Shown here in pieces: positions 1 through 1,966 of a DNA stretch of 5,185 nt. Made by a program: the position numbers and the translations under genes. This stretch comes from a virus. Lineage: Duplodnaviria > Heunggongvirae > Uroviricota > Caudoviricetes. Where the stretch lies: positions 1 to 5,185 of IMG/VR virus record IMGVR_UViG_2654587685_000014; one strand, written 5' to 3'. Under the pieces are notes generated by a model, which had not been told where the DNA came from, did not search any database, and saw only the letters and a list, made by a program, of their open reading frames with translations. The stretch's first letter is position 1; each line of letters opens with the position of its first letter.

Positions 1-1966
1 GGATGCCTTCACCGCTGGATGTACTCGGTGTGGTAATGCGTATGGTCATTGCGCCGCGGGTGCCAATAACTTCCACAACAGCACCTGCAAGACAAATATT
101 TCCGCAACCTGTATCTGTAATGACCTTATTACTTGCATAAGCCCATGAGCCTTTGCACATCCAGTAAGGATGGTTAAATGCCCCCTGACTCTCTAGCCAA
201 AAAATCAACTGCGCAGTTGTCCATGCTTCACTATCTCCACCAATATTCAGCTCTGCACTATATGCACGGCAGGCACCGATATTTTTCGTAAAGGTGTCTT
301 TGCCAGGGACATCCGCACCGTTCTGATCTTTCTGCAGACGTTTCTCAGCATTGTCATTGGCTGCTTTTACTGCCTTTGGCGTTGCCGCCAGCGTTTCAGA
401 CGTGCTGTTGGTCGCGCTGCTTAACTGGATTATCCCTTTCTGTGCTGTCGTTGCATCCTGTGCGGTGTATTTCCCGTTAGCCAGGTCATACGCGGCCTTA
501 ACGGCTTTTGGCGTTGCCGCCTGTGACTCGGAAGTGCAGTTGGTCGCACTACTGAGCTGTACTATCCCCTTTTTCGTCGTGCTCGCATCCTCAAGCGCCA
601 CAGCGGATGCAATATCCTCTGCCCGTTTTGCCGCTGTCTCGGCGCGCGTTGCCGCGGATTCCGCCGTACTTTTGCTCTGAGCTGCCGCCGTCGCACTGCC
701 AGCTGCCTCTGTCGCCTTCGTGGATGCCGTCGTGGCGCTGCCCTTCGCTGCGGACGCTTGTCTGGTCGCCTCATCTTTTGAAGCAGACGCAGATGATGCC
801 GATGACGCCGCCGAACTGGCGGACGATGCGGCAGCCGTTTTTGAGGATTCTGCGCTGGTTTCCGACGCTTTCGCGTTCGTCTCGGATGTCTTCGCTGCGG
901 AAGCAGACCTCGCTGCTGCGCTGGCCTGTACAGCGGCTTCGCCAGCCTTCGTTGTGGCTGTTGAAGCGGACGATGCAGCACTTTCTGCCGATTTTCCGGC
1001 GGCGGTGGCACTGGCTGAGGCCTGCCCGGCACTTGTTGACGCTGCACTGGCAGACGACGCAGCCGCTGTTTTTGAGCCTGCTGCTGCGGAGGCACTCTGT
1101 GCTGCTGCCGTTTCAGAGGACTTAGCGTTTGTCTCAGACGTCTTTGCCGCCTTCGCGGAATTTCCTGCCGCCGTTGCCGAGGAAGCGGCATTACTGGCGC
1201 TCGAGGCTGCGCTCGTTTCTGATAATTTTGCCGCCTCTTTTGAAGCCGACGCATCCCGGGCTGAGGTGGCTGCTTCTGACGCTTTCGTGGTCGCGGTGGA
1301 TGCAGAAGTGGCAGCTGATTGTTGTGACGCTGCCGCATTCGTTTCTGACGTTTTCGCCGCACCGGCACTGGTGGCCGCCGCGCTTTTTGAGGACTCTGCA
1401 GCAGCAGCACTTTTTGATGCTTCAGTGGCCTTTGCTGATGCCGTTCCTGCGCTGGAAGACGCAGACTGAGCCGACGAAGCGGCCTGTCCGGCTGACGTGC
1501 TGGCTGCGCGTGCTGAGCCTGCAGCATCAGTCGAATGGGTTGCCGCCTCACGGGCAGATGTGCTGGCATCACTGGCTGACTTCTTCGCGGCTGCCGCGTT
1601 CTGTGCCACTGCGGACGCGTTACGCGCCACCTCTTCCACCATCAGTTCAAAACGTCGCAATGCCTCCGGACGGGCATCATCCTCCGTCATGGCACCGAGA
1701 AAATCATTCAGCGTACCGGGTTGAGAATCTTCATACACGGTGATGGTCCCGGCATGTGACGGCGGGAATCCCTCCACCAACAGAATAACGCTGTACTGAC
1801 CGTACTCAACGTCCATGCTGTAACGCCCGGCTTCATCCGGATTTTCTGAGGCCAGCGTGTTCACCACCACCGTGGTGCTGTTACGTTTTGCTTTCAGCTG
1901 GATTGTGCAGTTCTGTACCGGTTTTCCTGTGCCGTCTTTCAGTACACCTGAAATCTTTACTGCCAT
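1..1966 (-). CDS. stf: Side tail fibre protein Stf, N-terminal 655 codons (3' end lies beyond the window start)
   Basis: ATG at 1966..1964 on the minus strand. Hand translation gives 655 codons with no stop down to position 1; the ORF track omits it because there is no stop in the window. N-terminus MAVKISGVLKDGTGKPVQNCTIQLKAKRNSTTVVVNTLASENPDEAGRYSMDVEYGQYSVILLVEGFPPSHAGTITVYEDSQPGTLNDFLGAMTEDDARPEALRRFELMVEEVARNA matches the conserved N-terminal domain of lambda / E. coli prophage side tail fibres as I recall it. It is followed by a ~350-aa Ala/Ser/Thr-rich shaft and the fibre motif GIVQLSSATN.TSE..AATPKAVK. The position 64 nt downstream of lom is the lambda gene order. A weak SD-like GGGGTG lies 3 nt upstream of the ATG. 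Confidence 0.85.
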   Translation of the reverse strand, partial: MAVKISGVLKDGTGKPVQNCTIQLKAKRNSTTVVVNTLASENPDEAGRYSMDVEYGQYSVILLVEGFPPSHAGTITVYEDSQPGTLNDFLGAMTEDDARPEALRRFELMVEEVARNASAVAQNAAAAKKSASDASTSAREAATHSTDAAGSARAASTSAGQAASSAQSASSSAGTASAKATEASKSAAAAESSKSAAATSAGAAKTSETNAAASQQSAATSASTATTKASEAATSARDASASKEAAKLSETSAASSASNAASSATAAGNSAKAAKTSETNAKSSETAAAQSASAAAGSKTAAASSASAASTSAGQASASATAAGKSAESAASSASTATTKAGEAAVQASAAARSASAAKTSETNAKASETSAESSKTAAASSASSAASSASSASASKDEATRQASAAKGSATTASTKATEAAGSATAAAQSKSTAESAATRAETAAKRAEDIASAVALEDASTTKKGIVQLSSATNCTSESQAATPKAVKAAYDLANGKYTAQDATTAQKGIIQLSSATNSTSETLAATPKAVKAANDNAEKRLQKDQNGADVPGKDTFTKNIGACRAYSAELNIGGDSEAWTTAQLIFWLESQGAFNHPYWMCKGSWAYASNKVITDTGCGNICLAGAVVEVIGTRGAMTIRITTPSTSSGEGI
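356..571 (-). repeat. Two diverged copies of an ~84-nt unit encoding the fibre motif KGI(V/I)QLSSATN(C/S)TSE(S/T)(Q/L)AATPKAVKAA
   Basis: Copy 1 at 488..571 encodes KGIVQLSSATNCTSESQAATPKAVKAAY. Copy 2 at 356..439 encodes KGIIQLSSATNSTSETLAATPKAVKAAN. They are separated by 48 nt. By eye the DNA identity is roughly two thirds, with many third-position differences, while the peptide is conserved. Confidence 0.8.
565..1633 (-). repeat. Low-complexity Ala/Ser/Thr-rich shaft-coding region inside stf with periodic internal repeats
   Basis: Stf residues ~112-468 are almost entirely A/S/T/K/E/Q. AAKTSETNA occurs three times (1334..1360, 1124..1150, 872..898), and S(A)STATTKA(S/G)EAA occurs twice. 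The GC-rich, codon-biased DNA leaves three other frames open over the same ~1 kb, which is seen directly in the ORF track. Confidence 0.8.

Follow-up and report, generated by a model that had tools for sequence, protein, structure and literature searches.

Identity and origin of the distal part of stf

The window analysed here, positions 1 to 5,185 of the IMG/VR record IMGVR_UViG_2654587685_000014 (Caudoviricetes), runs at its left end into the side tail fibre gene stf, and this locus raises the question of where the distal part of stf came from and which part of the fibre it encodes. The first-pass annotation of this DNA had proposed a mosaic junction in stf, with a horizontally exchanged receptor-binding module beyond it. 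The product is a lambda-type Stf, as the phage_tail_N profile of Pfam matches residues 1-134 across 134 profile positions (E=3.4e-72) and the order J-lom-stf on one strand is identical to that in PhiR68_2, Kati, A20 and lambda. Pfam also recognizes two Phage_fiber_2 repeats (E=1.7e-36) beyond the Ala/Ser/Thr-rich shaft, and no Pfam family matches the final 100 residues of the visible protein. From the comparisons described below, we consider it very probable that homologous recombination put part of a gpH-type fibre gene of a P2-like prophage in the place of the matching cassette of this gene, and that the 100 residues visible beyond the junction belong to an internal domain of the fibre.

A homology breakpoint within a conserved linker box

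Bases 1..302 of the window are identical, at 302 of 302 positions, to the gpH-type tail fibre gene of a P2-like prophage in E. coli O26:H11 strain 11368 (L006); the fibre protein of this donor type starts with a Phage_tail_fib domain. The same segment occurs at 99% identity or more in 167 E. coli records, O26:H11 11368 among them, and the matches end at 301-309. We inspected two of the 167 contexts, and both are P2-like prophages in which the fibre gene lies near the genes for the baseplate proteins V, W, J and I and for the tape measure protein. Lambdoid stf genes have 72% (PhiR68_2) and 89% (A20) nucleotide identity to 1..302. Over 303..560, the lambdoid stf genes reach 97% (PhiR68_2) or 95% (A20), and the identity to the P2-like gene is 0.798. 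The informative sites divide in the same manner: all 82 at or left of 278 are of the P2 type, and 47 of the 49 at or right of 303 are lambdoid. The maximum chi-square of this division is 122.7, a value that none of 2000 permutations reached. Because the last P2-type informative site is 278 and the first lambdoid one is 303, we place the crossover in 279..302, inside a linker box that directly follows the fibre repeats. The parent therefore switches abruptly, with homology on both flanks (80% on the right, 72-89% on the left), which is the pattern of a recombinant gene. The mosaic junction and the horizontal exchange of the distal part are real, and the junction lies just left of 300..350, where it had been suspected.

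A megablast search of 1..2000 against phage genomes separates two groups of lambdoid relatives. SPF_0923, PhiR68_2, mEp460_ev081 and PhiR26_1 match from position 10 or 25 to 2000, and the match to Kati, Chlobot, 2H10, mEp332 and ev099 ends exactly at 311. The best phage matches of the distal 310 bases, at ~90%, are the S' genes of Mu and D108, SfMu, Sv of P7, RCS47 and the P2-like phage P88; the first lambdoid group has 73-75% identity over these bases, and P1 Sv' and P2 H have ~71%. At the protein level, Stf 556-655 is ~88% identical to the A20 fibre. The distal 100 residues are colinear with the fibres of PhiR68_2, SPF_0923 and A20, which also match the shaft; such colinearity speaks against a swap, but the nucleotide identity to these genes steps from 95-97% to 72-89% at the junction, which speaks for it. 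Since the lambdoid lineage that provides the shaft already had this domain (72-89% nucleotide identity), the event appears to be the replacement of one allele by another and not the gain of a new kind of module. Lambda Stf itself has no counterpart of Stf 556-655 (best tblastn E=0.45), in agreement with the earlier remark that the distal part does not resemble it.

The visible distal residues belong to an internal domain

To find out what Stf 556-655 is, we compared it with fibres of known structure. These residues are 92% identical to both Mu S' and P7 S, and a phmmer search of the homologous region of A20 against the PDB matches 8JU3, the Mu S/S' fibre, across the whole segment (E=1.9e-91); PDB 8JU3 is cited in a figure legend of PMC11821841. 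In PDB 8JU3, residues ~188-330 of Mu S' form a compact alpha/beta domain in the interior of the fibre; Stf 556-655 covers roughly the N-terminal three quarters of this domain and has the same fold. The window stops at Stf 655, and the last two predicted strands of the domain (equivalent to Stf ~659-676) fall outside it.

The domain is widespread, and at the protein level we found it in 97 phage records of Mu-like, P1-like, P2-like, lambdoid and SSU5-like phages and of T4-like Vibrio and Aeromonas phages. In every PHROG fibre profile that it matches, it is internal and lies 160-480 positions before the profile end. In Mu S' and P7 S, the domain is followed by a gp37_C-type region ending INGTWYNAGSI, and in A20, PhiR68_2 and the O26 P2-like fibre by ~345 residues that comprise a Collar domain and a His-rich needle, with NIAFNYIVRLA at the very end. 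The set of homologous proteins consists of short fragments (<200 residues) and was used for the alignment and for the variety of flanks, not for full architectures. Two of its fragments, P0015 and P0020, show two further continuations after the domain, and in the P7-type fragment P0021 the domain is placed after a segment that in A20 comes after it. Altogether, at least four different distal regions follow the domain in different phages. Collar (PF07484), His-x-His repeats and gp37_C (PF12604) are all absent from the 655 visible residues of Stf; in full-length relatives they start 150-250 residues past the domain. The proposal that Stf 556-655 is a receptor-binding module was therefore abandoned in favor of an internal domain placed ahead of the variable distal regions. 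Judged from sequence, the domain is not the tip of the fibre but a portable module that sits between the repeats and the distal part, and from its position and spread we infer that it is a structural node of the trimeric fibre rather than the part that binds the receptor.

The peptide that first drew attention to this region is Stf 556-655, and translation confirmed its cysteines at 566, 604, 621 and 625; Stf has further cysteines at 20 and 477. Only two of the four, C604 and C621, are invariant among relatives, position 566 being Ala or Gly in about half of them and position 625 His or Gln in about a third. One could imagine that the domain gives the fibre a second, lateral site for binding or sensing, such as a carbohydrate-binding or redox-sensitive one built on C604 and C621 together with the Cys, His or Gln at 625, an idea that we regard as improbable. 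If it were true, the domain allele would affect host range independently of the tip, and such a site could explain the exchange of alleles between phage families as well as the lack of a solved fold relative besides Mu S'.

A proposed exchange with a P2-like prophage

In the exchange that we propose, the 3' part of a lambdoid stf would have been replaced by the matching part of a gpH-type fibre gene from a P2-like (myovirus) prophage of the same E. coli gene pool. The two Phage_fiber_2 repeats and the linker box, present in both genes, would have provided ~250 bases of homology at ~80% identity, and the exchange would have been resolved inside the box, in the 24-base identical stretch. The recipient lambdoid lineage would already have carried a diverged allele of the domain, so that one allelic cassette would have taken the place of another. 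Because the P2-like allele is common, with 167 records, and the chimera unique, the transfer was probably from the P2-like to the lambdoid gene. Homologous recombination would be sufficient because ~250 bases of 80% identity lie upstream of the junction and 72-89% identity continues downstream. If the tract continues as in the donor, ~345 more codons would follow, encoding a Collar domain and a His-rich needle and tip of the T4 gp37/lambda Stf type, and then a lambda-type tfa; receptor specificity would be set by this downstream tip part.

Several observations weigh against this proposal. None of 5,426 complete E. coli genomes contains the exact chimera (the best match is 93.8% over 1..700), nor does the phage collection, and exact-pattern searches of the GTDB representatives and of IMG/VR, the latter also with base 310 wild-carded, gave no hit. 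The chimera thus rests on a single sequence. Only 302 bases of the window lie beyond the junction, and any further part of the tract, the tip and tfa fall outside it. The structure model of the domain is a monomer of moderate confidence, with a mean predicted local distance difference test score (pLDDT) of 66 and ~80 in the core, and a role other than receptor binding is suggested by the position and spread of the domain, both read from sequences. Finally, a private substitution, G at 310, is located 8 bases from the crossover interval. It changes the codon 308..310 to GTC (Val553), and all compared fibre genes of both parental types have ATC, ATT or ATA (Ile) there. An ordinary mutation, a scar left by repair or an error of sequencing could account for this G.

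The alternative that survives best is that the junction is an assembly chimera, in which reads of a P2-like fibre gene and of a lambdoid stf in one genome were joined through the shared repeat or box. The absence of the exact chimera from all of the collections searched is what this would predict, both sides share the 24-base identical stretch with near-identity around it, and 167 E. coli genomes have the P2-like gene, many of them together with lambdoid prophages. The odd length of 5185, with both ends in sequence that is repeated among prophages (J and the 3' part of the fibre gene), also resembles a short draft contig. However, an exact overlap of 24 bases is shorter than the final k-mers of the usual assemblers, and the sequence continues for 302 further bases beyond the join. 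The join leaves the reading frame intact and gives a product colinear with genuine fibres that are built in the same way (A20 and PhiR68_2), and in other phages, natural breakpoints cluster at this very box. We thus consider an assembly artifact unlikely compared with a recombination event in a natural stf gene.

The linker box and the question of an invertase site

All of the fibres compared (those of the window, A20, PhiR68_2, Kati, P7 S, Mu S, Mu S' and O26 H) have the box NG.D(I/V)P.K..F..N(I/L)G after a Phage_fiber_2 repeat. The sequence after the box is the Cys-containing domain in the window, A20, PhiR68_2, O26 H, P7 S and Mu S', an unrelated sequence that continues into a Gp34_trimer domain in Kati, and the variable part of Mu S in Mu S. 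In Mu, a 34-bp inverted repeat containing the recombination site gix is embedded in this box (NGADIPNKPLFIQNLGLQE), its residues FIQNLGLQE being encoded by TTATCCAAAACCTCGGTTTACAGGAA, and in the window, gix has its homologous positions at 266..291, partly within the crossover interval. An invertase of the Din family (Gin, Cin or Pin type) might accordingly have made the exchange at a crossover site in the box, a route that has been suggested in the literature for ancient exchanges of fibre genes between unrelated phages, the more so as a Pin-type invertase is encoded just beyond tfa in related lambdoid phages and De Paepe et al. ascribe stf exchanges to invertases (PMC3945230).

We searched for such a site as a 26-bp element with two inverted 12-bp half-sites around a central dinucleotide, matching TTATCCAAAACCNNGGTTTANRGRAA (23 specified positions). 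The consensus was built from Mu gix and P7 cix, and the scan recovered these positive controls with 0 and 0 mismatches for gix and 2 and 4 mismatches for cix. No gix/cix-type site with six or fewer mismatches in 23 was found in the window or in the lambdoid and P2-like loci that we fetched. In register with the Mu site, the sequence of the window has 12 mismatches at the 23 positions and lacks the right half-site, and an invertase crossover site at the junction was therefore rejected. Furthermore, the boundary of the shared module is not at the site in the phages that do invert, but 68 (Mu) and ~676 (P7) bases inside the invertible segment. Din-family invertases also need inverted sites on one supercoiled molecule and an enhancer bound by Fis, and the ~250 bases of flanking homology are enough for ordinary homologous recombination. 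An exchange made by an invertase is, in our judgement, very unlikely, and recombination through the homologous repeats and box is preferred.

We noticed that Mu S' residues 156-203 contain two copies of the box, NGADIP.K..F..N.G, 32 residues apart and flanking gix (NGADIPNKPLFIQNLG and NGADIPGKDTFTKNIG); in lambdoid and P2-like fibres, the box occurs once and gix is lacking. These arrangements suggest that the box was the ancestral joint between modules and that the invertase site was inserted into it. The Pin-type serine invertase mentioned above is located at 1617..2207 of the PhiR68_2 locus (L001) and 863..1453 of the Kati locus (L002), in both cases just beyond tfa in phages with a related stf-tfa. 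No gix/cix-like site was detected in these 10-kb loci, and the enzyme may therefore be a relic, or its site may have diverged.

Base composition around the junction

The first-pass annotation had also pointed to a drop in GC content, and this drop is present: GC is 0.473 in 1..300 vs 0.617 in 961..1020. All 300-base windows with a GC content as low as that of 1..300 or lower start at 1-110, and they make up 1.7% of such windows. From the shaft to the distal part, GC at the second codon position (GC2) falls from 0.80 to 0.55, GC1 from 0.54 to 0.46 and GC3 from 0.51 to 0.40. In Fisher tests, the GC3 of the distal part gives p=0.052 against the shaft, 0.026 against the fibre repeats and 0.005 against the N-terminal domain. 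We then calculated the GC content expected from amino-acid composition alone, using the codon usage of J, lom and the N-terminal part of stf, and obtained 0.662 (shaft) and 0.549 (distal part), so that composition explains 0.113 of the observed difference of 0.147. The drop is hence mostly an amino-acid effect, because the Ala/Ser/Thr-rich shaft is left behind. The composition signal is real, but weak by itself as evidence for a separate origin; about three quarters of it is due to amino-acid composition, and we dropped it as a proof of foreign origin. The possibility that there was no exchange at all, and that a globular domain behind a low-complexity shaft simply diverged faster under selection, would fit this compositional share (~0.11 of 0.147), the borderline GC3 against the shaft and the colinearity with the lambdoid fibres that match the shaft, but it is already refuted and hardly deserves credence, as faster divergence cannot give 302/302 identity to a P2-like gene that is only 80% identical immediately upstream, nor can it produce informative sites split 82 to 0 on one side and 2 to 47 on the other.

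Comparison with known fibre exchanges

Horizontal exchange of tail fibre segments among lambda, P2, Mu, P1 and T4 was reportedly described by Haggard-Ljungquist, Halling and Calendar in 1992 and by Sandmeier in 1994, both of which PMC3945230 cites. The present gene resembles those cases in that a lambdoid stf has a 3' part in common with P2-type gpH, Mu S' and P7 Sv, with the joint in the box after the repeat. It differs from them in being very recent, with 302 bases that are still 100% identical to those of the donor and a crossover narrowed to 24 bases, and in a combination of parts that is absent from the collections searched. Exchanges of this sort have been known since the early 1990s, and the present one leaves the knowledge of tail fibre evolution unchanged.

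The domain is preceded in the window by the same NGADIPGKDTF box as in the S' fibre of Mu G(-) and in the Sv part of P7 gpS. In Mu and P7, the domain belongs to an invertible segment, and a gp37_C-type tip and a U'-type chaperone come after it, while in the P2-like donor it is followed by the Collar domain, the His-rich needle and a lambda-type Tfa. The Stf of lambda (Ur-lambda) shares with the window its position after J-lom, the N-terminal domain and shaft (84% identical over residues 1-326) and a Phage_fiber_2 repeat. In lambda, however, the repeat is directly followed by a different linker and a gp37-type tip. This tip (66% identity) and Tfa (87%) are shared between lambda and the P2-like donor.

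An experimental parallel comes from De Paepe et al. (2014), in which stf-tfa was exchanged between lambda and the defective prophages Rac and Qin by relaxed homologous recombination (PMC3945230). The same gene is involved there, the homology is likewise diverged (80-95%), and the junctions are likewise in short stretches of identity between mismatches. The partner in our case is a P2-like myovirus prophage, unlike the lambdoid remnants of that study, and the candidate recombinases are Red-beta/RecT-like proteins or RecA.

If our reading is correct, the locus offers a clean and datable case of a recent exchange of a fibre cassette between myovirus-type and siphovirus-type prophages in E. coli. 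For annotation, it suggests a simple rule, in which the box after the Phage_fiber_2 repeats marks a module boundary, a Cys-containing domain after the box is internal, and specificity should be read further downstream of that domain. The linker box could also be useful as a design joint for engineered fibres.

Layout of the window, second junction and neighboring loci

The features of the window are listed in Table 1.

Table 1 Features of the 5,185-nucleotide window, in coordinates of the strand shown.
Feature	Position	Strand	Remark	Basis
stf (side tail fibre) coding sequence	2..1966	-	655 codons visible, runs off left end	Translation, Pfam, J-lom-stf synteny
Stf N-terminal domain (PF08400, residues 1-134)	1565..1966	-		Pfam
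Ala/Ser/Thr-rich shaft (Stf ~135-462)	581..1564	-		GC2 ~0.80; 92-95% match to mEp460/PhiR68_2/A20-type lambdoid stf
Two Phage_fiber_2 repeats (Stf ~463-546)	329..580	-		Pfam; ~80% nucleotide identity to P2-like fibre gene
Conserved linker box NGADVPGKDTFTKNIG (Stf 549-564)	275..322	-		Directly after Phage_fiber_2 repeats in all compared fibres
Crossover interval	279..302	-	24 bases identical in both putative parents	Base-by-base alignment
Swapped segment (Stf 555/556-655)	1..302	-	End of linker box and first ~3/4 of Mu S'-type internal fibre domain	
Second mosaic junction in stf	1545..1617	-	Stf residues ~117-140	Homology switch
lom, Ail/Lom outer-membrane protein, 207 residues	2031..2654	-	Context	
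3' part of J, tail tip host-specificity protein	2723..5185	-	Context	

The repeats vary in number among stf genes that are otherwise ~95% identical: Kati-type stf has one Phage_fiber_2 repeat vs two here (329..580), and the alignment skips ~420-540. On the plus strand, antisense to stf, there are open reading frames at 3..140 (45 residues) and 351..680 (109 residues), both without homology or a supporting signal; the biased composition of the shaft probably gave rise to them. An Rfam scan of the full window on both strands gave no match.

The proximal side of stf has a history of its own. J, lom and the N-terminal domain of stf are 96-99.4% identical to lambdoid prophages of the enterohaemorrhagic and enteropathogenic E. 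coli (EHEC/EPEC) type, and this homology ends at 1545-1617, to the left of which the Ala/Ser shaft of the mEp460/PhiR68_2/A20 type begins. With this second junction, stf is at least tripartite. In those EHEC/EPEC-type prophages, the fibre is a 437-residue collagen-like protein, followed by Phage_fiber_C and by genes for effectors of the type III secretion system (NleB, NleG and NleF). The exact Lom protein is present in 10 EHEC/EPEC-type prophage loci, none of which (0/10) has this stf.

Two neighboring genes in the compared loci were also noted. In E. coli A20 (L005, NZ_CP028755.1), a 300-residue macro-domain protein (PF01661, E=1.6e-18) is encoded at 2969..3871 of the locus, between stf and tfa, an unusual position for cargo. 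In the P2-like prophages with the donor allele (L006 and L007), a serine O-acetyltransferase gene is located directly beyond tfa on the opposite strand (2773..3345 of the locus), and it may be a moron that affects surface polysaccharide.

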